Source of the DNA: an uncultured Acidobacteriota bacterium
GTDB lineage: Bacteria; Acidobacteriota; Vicinamibacteria; Vicinamibacterales; 2-12-FULL-66-21
Direction: 5' to 3'
Assembly (NCBI GenBank): GCA_963755695.1
Contig: CAVWLB010000008.1
Location: forward strand, 798,109 to 862,108
DNA length: 64,000 nucleotides
Positions within the stretch are counted from its first letter, which is position 1. The number at the start of each line of letters is the position of its first letter. Below are positions 23,658-35,255 of this stretch, piece after piece. A model generated the notes under the pieces. The model searched no databases. It worked only from the letters and a program-made list of their open reading frames with translations, and was not told the DNA's origin. Position numbers and translations under genes: made by a program.

Positions 23658-25219
<1,562 letters not shown>

Positions 25220-25486
25220 GGCGCGGTCCACGACCCGTGGCTGGTCGGAAAGTCATTTCCGAATCGGGCTATTTCCGTTCTCGTTTTCCTCGCTCGATCT
25301 CATGCGGCGCCTGCCGGCAAGGCAAAACAACGGAAATGTACGTCACTGATTTCCTCTTTCACTACCTTTGGTAAGTTCCATCGATTCAATCAATTAGATG
25401 CGATCTTGTGGCACTGCCGTTGCAGTGGCTGGGCTCGCCTGAAACGATGGTCTCAAAACCCGTGGCACCGGGAAGGGGGGCAGCAA

Positions 25487-25711
25487 GTGGCCAAGGAAGA
25501 TCGTGGATTTGCATCGATGGATAGGGCCAAGCAGCGGGAGATTGCGAGCAAGGGCGGGAAAGCGGCGCACCAGAAGGGTACTGCGCACGAGTGGACGAGC
25601 GAGGAAGCGCGCGACGCCGGTCGCAAGGGCGGCATCGCCAGCCATCGCCGTCGCCGCGAGCAGTCTGGGAAGCACGCCCGGACAGGAGATGGCCGAGCGT
25701 GGGATTGGTGA
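25487..25711 (+). CDS. KGG-repeat general stress protein (YciG-like)
   Basis: GFASMDRAKQREIASKGGKAAH...GRKGGIASH motif pairs. G-rich RBS 6 nt upstream of a GTG start. AT-rich upstream leader. Confidence 0.6.
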   Translation: MAKEDRGFASMDRAKQREIASKGGKAAHQKGTAHEWTSEEARDAGRKGGIASHRRRREQSGKHARTGDGRAWDW

Positions 25712-25920
25712 CGCCGAGTCGCAGCATCGATCTCGACGGACAACGAGTAGCTTCGAGGGGTTGCCAGGGCCCCTCGCCTTCCCCTAATCGACTCTCGGGT
25801 GCGCCGCCGACATGCGTACGAGTGACGCGTGTCGGTGACGCGGTCCTGTCTCTCCTGACATCGACCCGCCGCTGGAACGAGCTGAGTCTTTCCCTCCGCT
25901 GTTAGACTAGGCGGGCCGTC

Positions 25921-26546
25921 ATGACCCCAGACGAATACGCCCGCGCGCCGGCGCGTGCTGATGCGCCGCGATCCGGTCCTTGCGCCCGTCATCAAGAAAC
26001 ATCGCGAGCGGTCGTTGATCGAAGCGGCCTCCCGTGGATCCCTTCTCTGCGCTCGTCCGGGCGATCATCGGTCAGCAGCTCTCGACGAAAGCCGCCGCCA
26101 CGATTCATCGACGGCTGATCGGCGTTGATGCCGGGCGGCATTGCGACGCCGCAAGCCATTGCTCGCCCTTGCCGACGCGAGCTGCGTCAGGTCGGCATGA
26201 GCCGCCAGAAGAGCGCCTACCTCCGCGATCTTGCCGCGAAGGTCGCGAGCGGCGAGCTGCCGCTCGACTCGCTCTCTGAGATGACCGACGACGAGGTGAT
26301 CGAGGCGATCACCAAGGTCAAGGGCCTCGGCCGCTGGTCGGCCGAGATGTTCCTGATGTTCCGCCTGCACCGGCCCGACGTGCTTCCCGTGGACGATCTC
26401 GGCATCGTCAACGCCATCCAGCGCCTTTACAGGCTGCGCAAGAAGCCCAGCGCCGATCGCATCCGCAAGATCGGCGAAGCTGGCGGCCGTATCGCACCGT
26501 CGCGTGCTGGTACCTGTGGCGAAGTCTGGAGAACACGCCTCAATGA
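25921..26546 (+). pseudogene. HhH-GPD DNA glycosylase (3-methyladenine glycosylase II/AlkA-like) with at least 3 frame breaks
   Basis: Pieces MTPDEYARA, RRDPVLAPVIKKH, PFSALVRAIIGQQLSTKAAATIHRRL, GLGRWSAEMFLMFRLHRPDVLPVDDLGI and VACWYLWRSL occur in different frames. Confidence 0.65.
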
Positions 26547-29500
26547 AACCACTGCCGCGGATTGCACGGATCACACGGATTGGCATGCTCGCCATTGCGA
26601 TCGCCGCGGGGTTCGTCTCCGTGCGCGCGCCAGCAGACGGACGCGCAACAGGCCGAGAAAAAGGACGAAAAGAAGTGGGACGTCGCCGCCGATCTCGGCC
26701 CGACCCAGAAGCTGGCGTTCGACACGTCCGAAGGGACGTGGATGAACGTCGACGTCAGCCCCGACGGCCGCGCAGATCGTGTTCGACCTGCTCGGCGACA
26801 TCTACGTGATGCCGATCGGCCGGCAGCGGGAGCGTCGCCGGCGACGCGGATCACCAGCGGGCCCGCCTTCGACATGCAGCCGCGATTCAGTCCCGACGGC
26901 AAGCGCATCGCCTTCTCGCAGCGATCGCGACGGCCTGTGGAACATCTGGACGATCGACGTCGACGGGAAGAACGCGAAGCAGGTCTCGCGAGAGAAGCGC
27001 TGGTTCGTCAACAGCCCGACCTGGTCGCCGACGGCGACTACATCTTCGCGCGGCGTCACTTCGTCGCGGAGCGCTCGCTCGGCGCCGGCGAGATCTGGAT
27101 GTTCCACGCGAGCGGGTCCGACGGCCTGCAGGTCACCGAGAAGAACGGCTTCCAGAAGGACGCCGGCGAGCCGGCGGTTTCGCCCGACGGCCGCTACCTC
27201 TATTACAGCAAGGACGTCACGCCGGGCCAGACGTTCGAATACAACAAGGATCCGAACGGCACGATCTACGCGATCATCCGCCGCGATCTGACGACCGGCC
27301 GCGAGCGCCGCGTCGTCAGCGTCCAGGGCGGATCGGTCACGCCGCGTCCGTCGCCCGACGGCAAGTCGCTCGCCTACGTCCGCCGCGTGCGCCTCAGAGC
27401 CAGCTGTTCGTCCGCGATCTCGAGACGCGGCCGCGACCGCGCGTTCTTCGAGCACCTCGACAAGGATCTGCAGGAAGCGTGGGCGATCCACGGCCTGTAT
27501 CCGCAGTACGCCTGGACGCCGGACGGCAAGGTCGATCGTCATCTGGGGCGAGGGAAAGATCTGGCGCGTCGACGTCGCGACCGGCGAAGGGCGCGCGATT
27601 CCGTTCACCGCGCACGTCGAGCAGACGGTCAACGACGCGGTGCGCTTCCCGCAGAAGGTCTACACGCCGGAGTTCCCGGTGAAGATGCTGCGCGACGTCG
27701 CGATCTCGCCCGACGGCAAGCGCGTCGTCTACAGCGCGCTCGGCCAGCTCTATGTCACGGCGCTCTCGCCGGCGCGGCGACGCCGAAGCGCGGTCACCAG
27801 CGGACGACCGCGTTCGAGTTCGTTCCGTCGTGGTCGGCGACGGGCAGTGGATCGTCTACACGACGTGGACCGACGCGGACTACGGCCGCGTGCGCGTCGT
27901 CAGGCCCGACGGCACCGGCGGCCGCGACGTCGTCACGCACGCCGGGCCACTACGTCGAGCCGTCGTTCTCGCCCGACGGCAAGATGGATCGTCTTCCGCC
28001 ACGCCGGCGGCGACCCGATCCGCGGCCCGTTCTACGGCGACGAGCCCGGCATCTACGTCGTGCCGACCGACGGTCGGCGGCGCCGCGGCTCGTGCGCGAG
28101 GGCGGCACCGAGCCGAGTTCGATCACACCGGCACGCGCATCTACGTCAGCGACTCGCGCAACGAGCAAGTCCGTGCTGCTCAGCGTCGGCGTCGGCGACC
28201 GGCGTCGCCGCTGCCGGGCCGCGACGAGATCGTGCACTTCCAGTCCGAGAACGCCGACGCAGATCGTGCCGTCGCCCGACGGCAAGTGGGTGGCGTTCGC
28301 AGAGCGGTGGCACGCGTACGTCGCGCCGTTCCCGCACACCGGCCGCCCGGTCGACTTGGGCCCGACGATCGAGGGCTATCCGGTCGCGCGCATCTCGCGC
28401 GACGCCGGGTTCTACCTGCACTGGTCCGGCGACAGCCGCAGGTCTACTGGTCGCTCGGGCCCGGAGCTCTTCACGCGCGATCTCGACGCACACGTTCACG
28501 TTCCTCGACAGCGGCCTCGCGAAGCCCGACGAGCCCGAGGCCAAGGGCGTCCACATCGGCTTCACCGCGAAGAGCGACGTGCCGGACGGCGTCGATCGCG
28601 CTCGTCGGCGCGCGGGTCATCACGATGGCGGCGGCCGGCCCGATCAGGACGCCGGCGTGATCGAGAACGGCACGGTCGTCGTCGAGGGCAACCGCATCAC
28701 CGCGGTCGGGCCGTCATCGTCGGTCAGTGTGCCGGCGCGGCGCGAAGCGCATCGACGTCGCAGGCAAGACGATCATGCCGGGCATCGTCGACGTGCACGG
28801 GCACGTCGGCGGCGAAGGGGACGGCATCCTCGCGCAGATCGAGCTGGCCGCTTGCGGCGAACCTCGCGTTCGGCGTGACGACGTCGCACGATCCGTCGAA
28901 CGACACCGAGACCGTGTTCACGAACGCCGAGCTGATTCGCGCCGGGCGCGAAGCTCGGGCCGCGGCTGTTCTCGACCGGCACGATCCTCTACGGCGCCGA
29001 GACGCCGTTCAAGGCGGTCGATCGAGAACTACGACGATGCGCTGTCGCACTGCGGCGGCAGAAGGCGGTGGGCGCGTTCCGCGTCAAGAGCTACAACCAG
29101 CAGCGCCGCGACGCGCGGCAGATGATCATCAAGGCCGCGCGCGAGCTGCAGATGAGGTCGTGCCCGAGGGCGGGCTCGCTGCTCTACATGAACGAGACGA
29201 TGATCCTCGACGGCCACACCGAGCGTCGAGCACTCGCTGCCGGTGCCGCAGCTCTACAAGGACGTCGTCACGCTGTTCGCGAAGAGCAAGACCGGCTACA
29301 CGCCGACGCTGATCGTCGGCTACGGCGGCCTGTCCGGCGAGTACTACTGGTATCAGCACACCAACGTCTGGGAGAACGAGCGGCTGCTGACGTTCACGCC
29401 GCGCGAGATCGTCGACGCGCGCTCGCGCCGCCGGACTGATGGCGCCGGACGACGACTTCAATCACGTGCTGATTGCCAAGGGCGCCAAGCAGGTGCTCGA

Positions 29501-29845
29501 TGCCGGCGGCTCGGTGCAGCTCGGCGCGCACGGCCAGCTGCAGGGGCTCGGCGCGCACTGGGAGCTGTGGATGCTGCAGCAGGGCGGCATGACGCAATCT
29601 GGAGGCGATCCGGTGCGCGACGATCAACGGTGCGCGCGTGCTCGGCCTCGACGGCGACATCGGGTCGCTCGAGAAAGGCAAGCTCGCCGATCTCATCGTC
29701 CTCGATCGCAATCCGCTCGAGAACATCCGCAACACGCGAGTCGATCGCGATGGTGATGCTGAACGGCCGGCTCTACGACGCGAAGACGCTCAACGAGATC
29801 GGCAACCATCCCCGCGACCGCCTGAAGTTCTGGTGGGAGCGGTGA
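26543..29845 (+). pseudogene. Protein of ~1100 aa fusing a TolB-like PD40 beta-propeller to a metal-dependent amidohydrolase. Readable only by about 10 frame switches
   Basis: Signal peptide. More than 8 PD40 blades (SPDG[KR] recurrent). The C-terminal half carries amidohydrolase motifs (IMPGIVDVHGHVGG..., ...DGHTGVEH..., DLIVLDRNPLENI). The start ATG overlaps the glycosylase stop as ATGA. Confidence 0.7.
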
Positions 29846-29854
29846 CGGCCCTCT

Positions 29855-29952
29855 GGGGTCAGACCCCGCATCCCCGGGGTCTGACCCCACAGCGCGAGCC
29901 CGGGGTCTGACCCCACCTCTCACACTCGAGCCGTTTTTCGGGGTCTGACCCC
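29855..29952. repeat. Array of four 13-bp GC-rich palindromes GGGGTC(T/A)GACCCC
   Basis: Copies at 29855, 29876, 29902 and 29940, spaced 21, 26 and 38 bp apart. Copies 2-4 share a CC(C)GGGGTCTGACCCCA(C/A)C unit. A T5 run precedes copy 4. Confidence 0.8.
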
Positions 29953-29999
29953 AACCTCTGCTCAGAATTTGGCCTGATTCGTTGCGACTTGCGTCGATT

Positions 30000-30032
30000 T
30001 TGCAATTTGTAATATGATATTACAGATTGCAA
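30000..30032. promoter_or_regulatory. AT-rich 16+1+16 inverted repeat (candidate operator) overlapping the regulator start codon
   Basis: TTGCAATTTGTAATAT g ATATTACAGATTGCAA with one mismatch. Its last base is the A of the ATG at 30032. Confidence 0.6.
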
Positions 30033-30453
30033 TGACTCTCGCCCAGAAGCTCCGGCAGCTGCGGCAGCTCGAAGGAGAGCTTCGCGGACTCGGCCGCGAG
30101 CTGACCCAGTCGGAGCTGGTCCGCGCGATCCGCACGGAGCTGGGCGAGACGCATCAGCCAGTCCTATCTCTCGCTCATCGAAAAGGGCGCGCCGCAAGCA
30201 CCTGTCGCACGAATCGCGGCAGCTGCTCGCGCGCTTCTTCAAGGTCCATCCCGGGCTATCTCGTCAGCGACCCGCCGGGATTCCACACCGAGCTCGCGTC
30301 GGAGATCGCGCTCGGTCGAAACCGCGCTCGACCGCTGGCTGGGCGACGGCGCCGCCCGCTTCGCGCACGACCCGGCGCTCGGCCGCGGCGCTCGAGCGCG
30401 TCGCGACGCACGCCGAGTCGCGGCGCTGCCTGGTGCTGCTCGGCGAAATGATG
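30032..30453 (+). CDS. XRE-family HTH transcriptional regulator (ClgR-like position ahead of pspA), apparently frameshifted
   Basis: MTLAQKLRQLRQLEGELRGLGRELTQSELVRAI...ISQSYLSLIEKG HTH. The reading frame changes near 30150. The 3' end is uncertain. Confidence 0.5.
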
Positions 30454-30510
30454 TCGATGCCGGGTCTGATCGATCGCCTGTCGGAAACGCTCGTGCCGGA
30501 GGAGCGGACA

Positions 30511-31110
30511 ATGAACTGGCCGGCGATCTTTCTCGGCTGCTTCGTCATCGGGTTCGTGCTCAGCGTGCTGTCGTTCGCGCTTCGGCGTCGATCGACGCGC
30601 ACGTGCACTTCCCGTGGGAGACATCACGTCGCATGCCGGCGCGTCTTCACAGCGCCGGCACACGGGCACCGCCGTCGGTCCGATCAACTTCGCGACGATG
30701 ACCGCGTTTCTCGCCTGGTTCGGCGGCACCGGCTACCTGCTGACGTCGCAGTTCCGCTGGCTCGTGCTGCCCGCCGTCGGACTGTCGCATCGTGCTCGGG
30801 TTGTGCGGCGCGGCCGTCGTGTTCTGGATCATGGCGCAGGTGCTGTGGTCGCCGAACGAGAACATGCAGAGCGCCGACTACCACATGGTCGGCGTGCTCG
30901 GCCGCCTGAGCCAGCCGATCCGCGAAGGCGGCATCGGCGAGCTGATCTACTCGCACGGCGGCGCGCGCAAGTCGTGCGGCGCGCGCAGCGCCGACGGACG
31001 CGCGATCGAGAAGGGCGCGGAAGTCGTGGTGACGGGCTACGAACGCGGGCATCGCCGTACGGTGCGAGCGACTGGGACGCGATCTGCGGCGGACGAGCCT
31101 GTAGGACGGG
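30511..31110 (+). pseudogene. NfeD-like (YqiJ/YuaF) membrane protein with C-terminal OB-fold, frameshifted
   Basis: TM N-terminus MNWPAIFLGCFVIGFVLSVL. C-terminus GELIYSHGGARKSCGARSADGRAIEKGAEVVVTGYERG. GGAGG RBS. Confidence 0.6.
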
Positions 31111-31142
31111 TCGGTGAGCCCTTCCGGCATGGAGGCGGAACT

Positions 31143-32617
31143 ATGGGTCTTCAGACCATGAGCGTCGGATTCTGGGTCGTTGTCGGGCTGATGGTGCTGG
31201 CCGTGGCGCTGCTCGGATCGTTCCTCGCGTCGCTCTATCGGAAGGCCGGCCCGCACGAAGCGCTGATCGTCTACGGCTTCCGCGGCACGCGCATCGTGAA
31301 AGGGCACGGCACCGTGATCTTTCCGATGGTCGAGTCGTCGCCACGAGCTGTCGCTGGAGCTGATGTCGTTCGACGTCGCGCCCGAAGCAGGACCTCTACA
31401 CCAAGCAGGGCGTGGCGGTCACGGTCGAAGCGGTCGCGCAGATCAAGGTGAAGTCCGACATGCGAGTCGATCGAGACCGCGGCCGAGCAGTTCCTGACCA
31501 AGACGCCGGAGCAGCGCGAGGGCCTGATCCGGCTGGTGATGGAAGGCCACCTGCGCGGCATCATCGGCCAGCTCACGGTCGAGCAGATCGTGAAGGAGCC
31601 GGAGATGGTCGCCGACCGCATGCGCGCCACCTGCGCCGACGACATGAACAAGATGGGCCTCGAGGTGGTCTCGTTCACGATCAAGGAAGTCCGCGACAAG
31701 AACGAGTACATCGTCAACATGGGCCGGCCCGACGTGGCGCGCATCAAGCGCGACGCCGACGTCGCCGCGGCCGAGGCCGAGCGCGACACCGCGATCAAGC
31801 GCGCCGAGGCGACGCGCGAGTCGGCGATCGCCAAGGCGCAGGCCGACCAGGAGCGCGTGCTGGCCGAGACGCTGTCGCAGGCCAAGCAGGCCGAGGCGCA
31901 GCGCGACCTCGAGATCAAGAAGGCGAAGTACGTCGAGACCGTCAAGAAGCAGCAGGCGCAGGCCGACAAGGCCTACGAGATCCAGACCAACATCATGCAG
32001 CAGCAGGTCGTCGCCGAGGCGGTGCGCGTGCAGCAGGTCGAGCGCGAGCAGCAGATCAAGGTGCAGGAAGCGGAGATCCTGCGCCGCGAGAAGGAGCTGA
32101 TCGCGACCGTGCTGAAGCAGGCCGAGATCGAGCGCCAGCGCATCGCGATGCTGGCCGAGGCCGAGAAGCAGCCGGCTGTCGATCGAGGCCGAAGGCCAGC
32201 GCTGCCGCGATCCGCGCTGCAGGGCGAGGCGGAGGCCGACATCATCTTCAAGAAGGGCGACGCCGAAGCGCGGGCGATGAACGTGAAGGCCGAGGCGTTC
32301 CAGGAGTACAACCAGGCGGCGGTCATCGACAAGCTGCTCACGTCGCTGCCGGAGATCGTCGCGGGCGCTCGCCAGCCCGCTGACCAAGGTGGACAAGATC
32401 ACGATCGTGTCCACCGGCAACGGCGACATCGACCGGCATGCACAAGATCACCGGCGACATGACCGAAATCGCGGCGCAGGTGCCGGCGCTGTTCGAGGCG
32501 CTGTCGGGCATGCCGATGGCGGACCTGCTGTCGAAGGTGAGGAAGATCGGCGACAAGGCGCCCGCCCGGAGCGGCAGGAGCGGAGCGAGCGCGGTCGCGG
32601 AGCTGCCTGGCTCGAGC
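31143..32617 (+). pseudogene. Flotillin-like SPFH/band-7 protein (YqiK/FloA-like), frameshifted
   Basis: TM N-terminus. SPFH core (GLIRLVMEGHLRGIIGQLTVEQIVKEPEMVA...). A long Ala/Glu/Gln-rich coiled coil. Multiple frame switches. Confidence 0.7.
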
Positions 32618-32639
32618 GAGGACGTAAGACAGGAGTACC

Positions 32640-33309
32640 ATGGCAGTACTCGAACGCGTCGCCACGCTGGTCCGCGCGAACCTGAACGACCTGATCGATC
32701 GCGCGGAAGATCCGGAGAAGATGATCAAGCAGGTGATCCTCGACATGGAGAACCAGCTGCTGCAGGTGAAGACGCAGGTGGCGATCTCGATGGCCGACCA
32801 GCACCTGCTGCAGAAGAAGCAGAACGGAGCACGAGGACAAGGCGGCCGAGTGGATGCGCAAGGCGGAGCTGGCCGTCGACAAGCAGCAGGACGACCTCGC
32901 GCGCGCGGCGCTCGAGCGCTACCAGAGCTTCACCAAGCTGGCCGAGAGCTTACACGCAGCAGGTCGAGGACCAGAGGCAGCAGGTCGACACGCTGCGCAA
33001 GGCGCTCGCGCAGCTCGATCAGAAGCTGGGCGAGGCGCGGGCGAAGAGCGACCTGCTGCTCGCGCAGCATCGCCGGGCGCGCGCGCTCGAAAAGGCGAAC
33101 GACGCGCAGCTCGTCGTGGGCGGACGCGGCCCGGCCGCCGGCTTCGACCGGATGGAGCGGAAGGTCCAGCGCGCGAGGCCGTCAGCCAGGCCAAGTCCGA
33201 GCTGGTCGCCGACGATGTGGATCGCCGGTTCGAGGCGATGGAGAAGGACGACGAAGTGGGCCGTCTGCTCGACGCGCTCAAGGCTCGTCGCGGCGCCTCT
33301 CCGCAGTAG
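32640..33309 (+). pseudogene. pspA: PspA/IM30 (phage-shock protein A family), frameshifted
   Basis: MAVLERVATLVRANLNDLIDRAEDPEKMIKQVILDMENQLLQVK is the PspA N-terminus. The rest is recovered in 2 other frames. Confidence 0.7.
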
Positions 33310-33360
33310 CCTGGGCGCGGCCGACGTGAGGCGAAGGGCGGACCGGAGTAAGTCCGCCTT

Positions 33361-33389
33361 TTGCCTTTGGCCGAGCCGGTCGCTATAAT
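33361..33389 (+). promoter_or_regulatory. Near-consensus sigma70 promoter for tRNA-Gln
   Basis: TTGCCT, 17-nt spacer, TATAAT. The tRNA 5' end is 20 nt downstream. Confidence 0.65.
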
Positions 33390-33408
33390 CGAAGTTTCCG
33401 CCAGCCGT

Positions 33409-33482
33409 TGGGAGGTCGTTCAACGGTAGGACACGTGGCTCTGGACCACGTTATCGGGGTTCGAATCCCTGCCTCCCAGCCA
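33409..33482 (+). tRNA. tRNA-Gln (anticodon CTG)
   Basis: U1-A72 acceptor pair and G73 discriminator, both Gln hallmarks. Anticodon loop CUCUGGA, T-loop TTCGAAT, encoded CCA. Confidence 0.85.
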
Positions 33483-33833: not shown

Positions 33834-35255
33834 TCAGCCGGCTCTGCGCGCCGCCGGCAGCCTGCCGCGCGCGACCGCCCGTACCAGCGCCTGGTGATCC
33901 GCTTCGATCTGATCGGCATAGGCGCGCGCAAACTGACGCATCGCCTCATCCACGCGCCTCGATGATCCGACATAGCCAGCAATCATCGATGCGCCGCTCG
34001 TCCGCGCATGTCCCTTGGCGAGCAGATGACCCAGGATCCGCGCGTAATCCGTCAGCGCTCCGGTTTTGAGCGTGTCGAACGGGATTGCGCCCTTCATGTC
34101 GCGGAACTGGCGGACGTAGTACGACCGGTTCTCAATCGTCGTCCACCCCAGGAGCGGATCGCTCACGGTCTGCACCGCCTGCTGGTACTCGACGACTCGC
34201 TGTCCCTGATGGGCGTGCCGCGGCACGTCACCGTGCACGTAGGGAGCCACGACCGACCGGCGCGCCTCTTTTAACTGCAGAAAGAGGACGTCCTCAGGCG
34301 TGCTGCCCTCCAGCAGTGCGACGTAGCTTCGCAGTCCGACGCTGCTGACACCGACGACTTTATGAGCGATGTCGACCAGCGTGTAGCCGCCAACAATGCG
34401 ATGCCAATGAGGCGCGAGGGTGTTCAGATAGTCGTCGATCGCAGCGGCAATCCGCTGGAACGTGGCCCCTGGAACCCGAGTGATCAGCGGCGGCTTGTCG
34501 ACGATGTGACGGGAGCCGCTCAGTTGGGTGGTGAATCGCGGCAGCGCGCGGTCGCTCGTTCGAGTGCGCGCGAGCCGCGCGGCGCGAGCGATCGTCGCGC
34601 GTAACGACTTGCCGGTCACCGTGCTGTGCAGGAGTTGAACGTCCATGCGCTGAAACGAACGCGACAGCAGCGGCTGAATCGCCAGCAGGCGCACCGATTG
34701 CCGATAGGCGGCCACGCACGACATCACGGCGTCATCGCACTGCGCATCCCGCATGCCACTCTGTCGTCCAGCCACATAGAAGCTGGTGACCAGCCGCCGC
34801 AGGTCCCATTCCCAGGGACCGGGATGCGCCTCGTCGAAGTCGTTGAGGTCCAAGACCAGGTCGCGTTCTGGCGAGGCGTAAAAGCCGAAGTTTCCGAGGT
34901 GAGCATCCCCGCAGATGACCGGGGTGATGCCTGTCGCGGGGAGGCGCGCCAAATCCTCGGCCATCACGTTGGCGCCGCCACGCAGAAATCCGTACGGTGA
35001 GGAGACCATTCGCGCGATCCGGATCGGAATGAGGGAGGCGACCCGTCCGACGTGGAGCCGCTCGATCAGGGCGATCGGATCGGGCCTGTTGTCAGCGAGC
35101 CGCCACACACCGAGCGAGGTTCGTGAGACTTTCTGCCGCAGGTGGCGACCGAGCTTGAAGCGCTTGACTCGCGAAACCGGTCGAACGCGGACGGACCGAT
35201 AGGCTCGGCTGTCGTCACCCGGCAGCGCTGAATATGTCGTCAGCTTCGTCGCCAT
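33834..35255 (-). CDS. DUF2252-family protein
   Basis: 473 aa. SPYGFLRGGANVMAEDLA...GDAHLGNFG matches the DUF2252 N-terminal signature. Confidence 0.7.
   Translation of the reverse strand: MATKLTTYSALPGDDSRAYRSVRVRPVSRVKRFKLGRHLRQKVSRTSLGVWRLADNRPDPIALIERLHVGRVASLIPIRIARMVSSPYGFLRGGANVMAEDLARLPATGITPVICGDAHLGNFGFYASPERDLVLDLNDFDEAHPGPWEWDLRRLVTSFYVAGRQSGMRDAQCDDAVMSCVAAYRQSVRLLAIQPLLSRSFQRMDVQLLHSTVTGKSLRATIARAARLARTRTSDRALPRFTTQLSGSRHIVDKPPLITRVPGATFQRIAAAIDDYLNTLAPHWHRIVGGYTLVDIAHKVVGVSSVGLRSYVALLEGSTPEDVLFLQLKEARRSVVAPYVHGDVPRHAHQGQRVVEYQQAVQTVSDPLLGWTTIENRSYYVRQFRDMKGAIPFDTLKTGALTDYARILGHLLAKGHARTSGASMIAGYVGSSRRVDEAMRQFARAYADQIEADHQALVRAVARGRLPAARRAG

Follow-up and report, generated by a model that had tools for sequence, protein, structure and literature searches.

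Introduction

In Bacillus subtilis, PspA has been linked experimentally to an SPFH protein and to small membrane partners through pspA-ydjGHI (samGHI) (PMC8581546, PMC9239133), and Ravi et al. 2024 associated PspA with Band-7/flotillin and YqiJ/YuaF-type proteins. For Acidobacteriota, Popp et al. 2022 (mSystems, PMC9239133, Fig. 7) presented an in silico PspA network with Band7/FloT, NfeD and an operon-encoded helix-turn-helix (HTH) regulator, which, in the words of that source, 'potentially regulates operon expression'. We analyzed an operon of the same composition in a stretch of 64,000 nucleotides (hereafter the window) from an uncultured Acidobacteriota bacterium (GCA_963755695.1, contig CAVWLB010000008.1, positions 798,109 to 862,108). 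Its first gene encodes a regulator with a palindrome over the start codon, and the next three encode an NfeD-type protein, a flotillin and PspA. To our knowledge, the gene regulation of Acidobacteriota, which rank with the most abundant bacteria of soil and are hard to grow, is almost wholly undescribed.

The unit of an NfeD-type gene upstream of a flotillin gene is shared with B. subtilis yuaFGI (YuaF-FloT) and E. coli yqiJK (YqiJ-YqiK). However, the B. subtilis and E. coli operons differ from the one in the window in gene order and partners, are regulated in other ways, and have neither an operon-encoded XRE regulator nor a comparable operator. The actinobacterial clgR-pspA-pspM(-pspN) operon is alike in that it opens with the gene of a Cro/XRE-type regulator, also encodes PspA together with a membrane partner, and serves the envelope stress response. 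It differs in that the regulator described here is not a ClgR orthologue and is accompanied by NfeD and flotillin; the stretch 30032-33309 contains neither a PspM nor a PspN gene. The E. coli PspF-PspA pair can serve as a conceptual model: there, the transcription factor of the system is controlled by a PspA-family or membrane partner. PspF itself is a sigma-54 enhancer-binding AAA+ activator, whereas here we deal with a small HTH protein at a predicted sigma-70-type promoter. Finally, EspR (Rv3849) of Mycobacterium tuberculosis is an autoregulating protein that works as a dimer of dimers; its binding consensus is TTTGC[TC][GA], and it protects the inverted pair CAGCAAA<16>TTTGCTC in the espR promoter (PMC3315491).

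Here we propose that the four genes form an autoregulated envelope-stress operon, that the palindrome is the operator of the regulator, and that the regulator represses its own operon. We estimate the probability of this reading at about 0.65.

Results

A conserved dyad at the predicted promoter of the regulator gene

With a repeat finder we located the palindrome at positions 30000-30032. Its arms, 30000-30015 (TTGCAATTTGTAATAT) and 30017-30032 (ATATTACAGATTGCAA), have 16 nt each and are separated by a single G. They are 94% complementary, with the sole mismatch at 30007 (T) versus 30025 (G). The last base, 30032, is the A of the regulator's ATG, and the 158-aa orthologues all begin there (MTL...). 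This is the geometry given in an initial annotation of this DNA, namely 16+1+16 with one mismatch, ending on the A of the ATG. There was one match to a degenerate pattern of the full palindrome in the window, and 0 of 100 dinucleotide-preserving shuffles matched. An arm-by-arm matrix scan of the window also found a single site, the palindrome itself, with a score of 48 bits. Neither the exact degenerate pattern nor the arm matrices detected a second operator copy in the window. The palindrome is a non-chance feature.

We wanted to see how the palindrome is kept in related loci. A scan for relatives of the regulator, with one genome taken per species, gave more than 512 loci, of which 80 species-level loci were kept. 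All of these were annotated as Acidobacteriota (Vicinamibacterales, Terriglobales, Bryobacterales and others), except one metagenome-assembled genome (MAG) labelled Deltaproteobacteria. Sixty-two loci were aligned at the dyad centre, and a matrix was built from their sites. The consensus over these loci is a 36-bp dyad, atATTgCAaATTGCAATAT-nn-ATATTGCaAtTTGcaAT, in which the invariant or near-invariant columns are mirror-symmetric (AT-N2-CA-N4-GC-N-AT-N6-AT-N-GC-N4-TG-N2-AT). Of 85 related loci scanned with the matrix, 84 have the dyad in front of the regulator gene (the copy in L023 lies at -107). The initial annotation had made its reading depend on such conservation upstream of orthologous regulators, and the reading stands in this respect. 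In 860 kb of related loci, long Terriglobia flotillin-pspA gaps included, the dyad was essentially absent outside the regulator promoter.

The dyad is kept across Vicinamibacterales, Terriglobales and Bryobacterales, though the regulators are only 57-86% identical and the flanking DNA is unalignable. Upstream DNA could be aligned between clades in one block only, consisting of a -35 box (mostly TTGACA) followed by the AT-rich dyad. The best complementarity of 17+17 arms had a mean of 12.0/17, compared with 9.5 +/- 0.9 in shuffles, and a value of at least 13 was reached in 34 of 84 loci versus 0.24% of shuffles.

Further, we compared the position of the dyad with that of the predicted promoter. 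A -35 box matching at least 5 of 6 positions was found 16-18 nt from a TAnnnT -10 box within the dyad centre in 42 of the 62 loci. In the family the -10 box occupies dyad columns -4..+1 or -1..+4; the dyad begins directly after the -35 box, with its centre on the -10 box. The predicted transcription start falls inside the right arm, and the leader, mostly 7-13 nt, has no ribosome-binding site. Where the window has TATGAT as the -10-like hexamer, its closest relative (L206) has TATAAT. The 3' end of the dyad lies at the ATG or a few bases from it in the aligned upstream block; in some loci the ATG is 8-15 nt further downstream. Overlap with the start codon, noted in the initial annotation, varies, as the ATG is 8-180 nt further in some loci and at the sites without a regulator gene described below. 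Judged by these predicted promoters, the constant feature is the overlap with the promoter and its -10 box, not with the start codon. Since the dyad covers the -10 box and the predicted start, this is the geometry expected of a repressor, and the autorepression-type arrangement suggested earlier holds in this form.

The regulator and its relation to EspR

A homologue search with the stitched regulator sequence returned 4739 proteins; the best 120 were 158 aa long and 83-90% identical. Some homologues carry the name 'XRE-family HTH' (JGI) or 'Vicinamibacterales bacterium' (NCBI), in line with a Vicinamibacterales-like source of the window within Acidobacteriota. There was no match for the regulator in NCBIfam, and Pfam gave HTH matches below threshold only, such as HTH_31 with 17.1 bits against a cut-off of 27; some orthologues have a precomputed PF01381 match. 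Therefore, we assigned the regulator to a family by structure and profile comparison.

We used an AlphaFold2 model calculated from a diverse 35-sequence alignment, which had a predicted local distance difference test score (pLDDT) of 85.9. An alignment of 20 near-identical sequences gave pLDDT 59, and that model was not used. In this model, an HTH domain (residues 1-78) is joined by a disordered linker to a domain of four helices (94-152). Its five-helix DNA-binding fold can be superposed on the N-terminal domains of SinR, 434, P22 c2 or CI, in agreement with the XRE-family label of the initial annotation. In a profile search of Protein Data Bank sequences, EspR of M. tuberculosis was the sole match below E 1e-3 (3.3e-4, residues 25-111). 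The top 15 Foldseek matches of the model were all EspR, and hhalign aligned the regulator family with an EspR segment at 97.8% probability (33% identity, 54 columns). The homology of the DNA-binding domain includes the long H1-H2 loop and the FF(K/R)(V/I)...Y..DD segment.

By sequence and by the predicted structure, the regulator is an XRE-fold protein of EspR type and not ClgR. EspR is the closest relative in both sequence and fold, and the two share an N-terminal HTH with a long H1-H2 loop; the C-terminal helical domain predicted for the regulator may correspond to that of EspR. Their identity is only about 25-33%, and the similarity of the C-terminal domain is weak. The likeness may extend to DNA. 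The TTTGC heptamer of EspR resembles the heptads of the operator, with a TTTGC/TTGC core in common, and in both cases a dyad lies at the protein's own promoter, binding being predicted here. EspR differs in that it is nucleoid-associated, has loose sites in the hundreds and is not linked to pspA, flotillin or NfeD. The system in the window appears instead to have a single, tight 36-bp operator at each promoter and a small set of functionally focused targets.

The recognition helix, (I/L)SQSY(L/V/I)S, is near-invariant across the phylum, and so is the operator core. Comparing the helix with operator variants (ATAGC versus ATTGC) we observed no clean covariation signal, because both are nearly invariant. 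The resemblance of the heptads to the EspR motif, together with the near-invariance of both helix and operator core, is the main reason why we assign the dyad to this regulator, which is predicted to bind it.

Structure of the predicted operon

In the intact locus L003 the regulator has 158 aa, the NfeD_TM protein 187 aa, the flotillin 479 aa and PspA 220 aa, and the first two genes are joined by an ATGA overlap. The order regulator-NfeD-flotillin-PspA was complete in 71 of 80 loci; eight were cut by contig ends, and one (L012) was a variant. NfeD lay directly upstream of flotillin in 71 of 80 loci as well, and the stop of the regulator overlapped the start of NfeD as ATGA in 56 of 83. In the window, ribosome-binding sites precede NfeD (GGAGGAG, 7 nt before the ATG), flotillin (GGAGG) and PspA (AGGAG), and the regulator has none. 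A + strand search of 30000-33300 detected nothing resembling a terminator; a strong one lies behind pspA. Because the gene order is conserved, the first junction is an ATGA overlap, genes 2-4 have ribosome-binding sites, and a strong terminator is predicted after pspA with none inside, the economical reading is that the four genes form a single operon with one predicted sigma-70-type promoter. The initial annotation had proposed one operon with gaps of 20-30 nt. The single operon was supported by comparison with related genomes; the gaps were not, as after frame correction the regulator-NfeD junction is a 4-nt overlap and the remaining gaps are about 25-38 nt and 12 nt. Coordinates of all features are given in Table 1.

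Table 1. Predicted features of the operon and its control region in the window.
Feature	Position	Strand	Remarks
Predicted operator dyad, TTTGCAATTTGTAATAT-G-ATATTACAGATTGCAAT	29999..30033	.	contains the 16+1+16 core 30000-30032; (A/T)TTGC(A/G)A-like heptads
-35-like hexamer TTGCGT	29989..29994	+	assigned by position from upstream alignments; weak, TTGACA in most orthologous loci
-10-like hexamer TATGAT	30013..30018	+	dyad centre, 18 nt past the -35-like hexamer; predicted from sequence
EspR-like XRE-family regulator	30032..30514	+	158 aa after removal of six single-base insertions; without ribosome-binding site; TGA stop overlaps NfeD ATG
NfeD/YuaF/YqiJ-type membrane protein	30511..31117	+	tblastn with L003 protein; several insertions; 3' end uncertain, stop at 31104 or 31117
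Flotillin (SPFH/Band_7 + Flot, FloT/YqiK type)	31143..32627	+	frame breaks; 479 aa in L003
PspA/IM30	32640..33309	+	three frame breaks; 220 aa in L003
Intrinsic terminator hairpin with U-rich tail	33329..33366	+	RNA fold of 33310-33375: -39.4 kcal/mol, z -3.98

The three downstream proteins were assigned as follows. Intact NfeD orthologues have about 187-193 aa, and PF25842 (NfeD_TM) is recorded for them; hmmscan of the NfeD protein against our local Pfam copy gave no match, and 2k14, the C-terminal domain of YuaF, was matched weakly (E 0.043). The stitched flotillin matched Pfam Band_7 (8.5e-29, residues 34-211) and Flot (3.5e-9, 350-456). Its translation begins with a hydrophobic N-terminus, MSVGFWVVVGLMVLAVALLGSFLASL, and the protein has the full architecture of anchor, SPFH domain, coiled coil and Flot. 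It matched the NCBIfam FloT model at E 6.5e-98 over positions 16-463, under the equivalog cut-off. The stitched PspA matched PF04012 over its full length (1.7e-39, residues 3-219; 7.8e-42 for the L003 orthologue) and TIGR02977 at 1.4e-41, again under the equivalog cut-off.

Some loci depart from the common layout. In the variant L012:5001-7376 the genes after the regulator are an SPFH-like one, shorter and divergent, and pspA; NfeD was not detectable there, and the dyad is atypical. NfeD and flotillin are separated by more than 600 nt in 21 of 71 loci (Terriglobia), and in L061:6238-7074 this interval holds a gene for a DUF1648 membrane protein (PF07853, 3.9e-11). More than 300 nt lie between flotillin and pspA in 30 of 71 loci, and no additional operator copy was found there. 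In L061:5001-6161, from a long-read MAG, regulator and NfeD are read as one 386-aa in-frame fusion, the only case among 83 loci; it is probably an indel and less likely a membrane-tethered regulator. As there is no in-frame stop in the window either, we considered a regulator-NfeD fusion protein and rejected it: the case in the window results from the insertion at about 30506, and L061 stands single.

The window also contains, at 29852-29954, four copies of a 13-nt palindrome, GGGGTC(T/A)GACCCC, between an amidohydrolase gene and the regulator promoter. Similar palindromic units occur at the same place in relatives (GGGTCTTTAGACCC in L003, GGGGTCTGACCCC in L014). They make up a REP-like element family, which could in addition serve the upstream gene as a terminator or insulator. 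Comparison of window 24000-29845 with L003:1-5759 revealed a conserved Vicinamibacterales neighbourhood, which encodes a tRNA-synt_1c class-I tRNA synthetase, a protein with KGG repeats, a glycosylase of HhH-GPD type and a Tricorn/amidohydrolase. L207 and L208 lack the amidohydrolase; there the glycosylase gene borders directly on the regulator promoter. Downstream of the operon lies tRNA-Gln(CTG) at 33409-33482; its own promoter-like site, TTGCCT-17-TATAAT (33361-33389), comes immediately behind the pspA terminator, with partial overlap.

Predicted operator sites without a regulator gene

We scanned metagenome contigs with the invariant columns of the dyad, and at least 120 stretches matched. 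The regulator gene was immediately downstream in 94 of the 120 stretches listed. Among the other 26, nine had low, chance-like matrix scores, two were ambiguous (L145, L204) and six were high-scoring sites at contig ends. In another six (L102, L107, L121, L144, L159, L165) a promoter composed of TTGACA and the dyad heads a second PspA operon. Its layout, seen for example in L159:334-4944, is a leader of 90-180 nt, a ribosome-binding site and five genes. Their products are, in this order, a conserved protein (about 138 aa), a PspA paralogue (about 260 aa; PF04012 at 2.3e-38), a membrane protein (about 210 aa) and two further proteins (about 505 aa and 315 aa). Family searches of the second-operon proteins identified only PspA, and the 138-aa protein had no family match. 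In L165:4588-4660 the leader just past the dyad reads MQTNLKLRDLRQVEAMLRALDRP and resembles the N-terminus of the regulator, as if the promoter had been copied along with the first regulator codons.

At L127:1328-1440 and L152:525-650 (- strand) the promoter-operator precedes a conserved putative transcript, roughly 75 nt long and terminated by an extended GC hairpin with U7 (-42 kcal/mol, z -3.96). An Rfam search of the trans-site loci gave nothing credible and no match for this transcript, which we regard as a candidate small RNA of the regulon. In L089 (about 279-314, - strand) a dyad of 47.5 bits with TTGACA is followed by a ribosome-binding site and the gene of a signal-peptide protein (MKGILRIAALAALALPVMAQD...); this gene for a secreted protein is a possible further member of the regulon.

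The trans sites scored 40-52 bits, and there was no regulator gene at any of them. Because the operator occurs at promoters on contigs without a regulator gene, it probably acts in trans as well, on targets that are again centred on PspA. A search for the palindrome upstream of other genes, suggested in the initial annotation, thus gave a divided answer: none were found in the window or in the 860 kb of related loci, and they were found on metagenome contigs.

Frame breaks in the window

In three-frame translation all four genes can be read only by hopping between frames, as had been noted before. Long open reading frames are uninformative for mapping such a block in high-GC DNA. Instead we aligned the window to orthologous loci, the intact L003 (86% nucleotide identity) and the closer L206 (88%). 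Nearly every break in coding sequence was one extra base in the window compared with L003 and L206. The regulator has six such insertions, at approximately 30151, 30192, 30253, 30309, 30380 and 30506; there are about 12 breaks in NfeD, about 10 in flotillin and 3 in PspA, and the same pattern was found in the syntenic upstream genes from 24 to 29.8 kb. Within 24000-33309 the window carries dense single-base indels, overwhelmingly +1 and spaced every 40-100 nt in coding sequence, and this block ends near 33361-33482.

Discussion

We computed the conservation and placement of the operator, the gene order and overlaps, the homology with EspR, and the presence of the operator at promoters without a regulator gene. 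Binding to the operator, its repressive effect, and the inducing signal with its sensing are inferred. We propose that the regulator, probably as a dimer of dimers by analogy with EspR, occupies the dyad, which extends across spacer, -10 box and start site in the predicted sigma-70-type promoter. As the dyad covers the -10 box and the predicted start, the bound regulator would exclude RNA polymerase and keep the whole operon low. The regulator would be made in low amounts relative to the three effectors, because its short leader lacks a ribosome-binding site and its stop is coupled to the start of NfeD. Membrane stress would then relieve repression, most plausibly when a membrane-side partner (NfeD, PspA or flotillin) sequesters or inactivates the regulator, a route suggested by analogy with the PspF-PspA and ClgR-PspA pairs.

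Several observations weigh against this proposal. The -35 box of the window, TTGCGT, is weak. The centre of its dyad is 1 nt shorter than in relatives, with 33 nt from TTGCAA to TTGCAA compared with 34 nt in 7 of the 7 closest, and for this reason the ungapped family matrix missed the dyad in the window; the shorter centre may be real or may be one more assembly error. As TTGCAA is identical to its reverse complement, direct and inverted arrangements of the heptads look alike, which leaves the binding stoichiometry ambiguous, although the invariant columns form a mirror-symmetric pattern. The Pfam HTH_3 score of the regulator (18.5-20.2 bits) is below the gathering threshold of 23, and all four genes are frame-broken in this assembly. 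The metagenome contigs with trans sites are not assignable to genomes that carry the regulator, and none comes from the order of the window. Finally, EspR and ClgR activate some of their targets, and the sign of regulation is read here from geometry only.

The last point leads to a first alternative, namely that the regulator binds the dyad and activates, as ClgR does at clgR-pspA and EspR at espACD, or that its effect switches between the two with occupancy. Activation has been reported for ClgR at its own psp operon (PMC13622631), and espACD is under positive control of EspR (PMC3315491). Here, however, the dyad has its centre on the -10 box and extends over the predicted start, there is no site upstream of the -35 box, and the -35/-10 spacing of 16-18 nt is already optimal, so that remodelling of the MerR kind is unneeded. 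The geometry argues for repression, unlike ClgR activation, and we consider an activating role unlikely.

We find it just as unlikely that the AT-rich block is promoter architecture, or a site of an unlinked factor such as a nucleoid protein or a global regulator, to which the adjacent regulator does not bind. The block does include the -35 and -10 boxes, and nucleoid proteins are attracted by AT-rich DNA in a genome of 65% GC. On the other hand, invariant dyad-symmetric columns also lie outside the two hexamers, the motif occurs only beside this regulator in the 860 kb of loci, and it resembles the heptamer bound by the closest solved homologue of the regulator. The regulator's own recognition helix is near-invariant, as is the operator core.

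Less probable still is a decayed module, in which the frame breaks would be real, the four genes pseudogenes and the operator a relic. There are more than 20 frame breaks over the four genes and further ones in the syntenic upstream genes. However, in coding sequence nearly all of them are +1 insertions at intervals of about 40-100 nt, the protein sequence stays equally well conserved from one frame to the next, intact 158-aa orthologues exist in the thousands, and genes outside the block are unbroken (e.g. 33834-35255, - strand, 473 aa). Because protein similarity continues through these +1 insertions, the breaks look like sequencing or assembly error in a locally unpolished stretch and not like gene decay.

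An RNA hairpin that sequesters the regulator's start codon, for translational control or for attenuation of upstream read-through, was judged very improbable: RNA 29990-30050 does fold at -19.1 kcal/mol (z -4.09) with the A of the AUG in the stem, and some variable column pairs show weak symmetric covariation, but the left arm would be untranscribed, since the predicted start is inside the right arm, orthologues average only 12/17 complementary positions in an A/U-rich stem, base identity is conserved rather than pairing, and the dyads of the second operon lie 90-180 nt from the start codon.

Beyond repression of its own operon, the regulator may have a wider role. It is conceivable, and we put this forward tentatively as the less probable view, that the EspR-like protein is a master regulator of a phylum-wide membrane-stress regulon in Acidobacteriota. 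Through one type of 36-bp, five-heptad operator it would control the flotillin-NfeD-PspA operon, the second PspA operon, the small RNA and further genes, binding as a dimer of dimers and being switched off by a membrane-side partner (the coupled NfeD or PspA). If true, this would be a third, mechanistically distinct form of Psp regulation beside PspF and ClgR/LiaRS.

The initial annotation regarded the composition of this operon as undescribed and likened it to clgR-pspA. The composition had already been reported for Acidobacteriota, as the network in Fig. 7 of Popp et al. 2022 (PMC9239133) has the same members; with respect to that figure, the operator, the promoter, the regulator family and the regulon are what our computation supplies. 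The closest solved relative of the regulator is EspR and not ClgR. The earlier interpretation is therefore partly supported: its view of the function was for the most part correct, but the novelty and the analogy with ClgR did not hold up. A full-text literature search for Acidobacteria, PspA and flotillin returned no paper, and in the literature we found no description of the operator, its placement at the promoter, the EspR-type identity of the regulator or the trans sites. The gene set is thus already known, as a prediction from 2022, and the control site and the kinship of the regulator with EspR are new.

In summary, this is a well-conserved, ordinary-looking autoregulated stress operon of a catalogued type, now with a specific and testable regulatory mechanism and a first outline of its regulon. 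Our understanding of PspA, flotillin and NfeD themselves is unchanged. The operon occurs in hundreds of Acidobacteria species, and the operator matrix can be used for regulon prediction in any complete acidobacterial genome. For the Psp/flotillin envelope-stress response of Acidobacteriota, the results provide a testable regulatory unit consisting of a predicted promoter with its 36-bp operator, a candidate for the repressor, and initial putative trans targets. They would also tie the EspR family, known only from the control of mycobacterial virulence, to membrane homeostasis.

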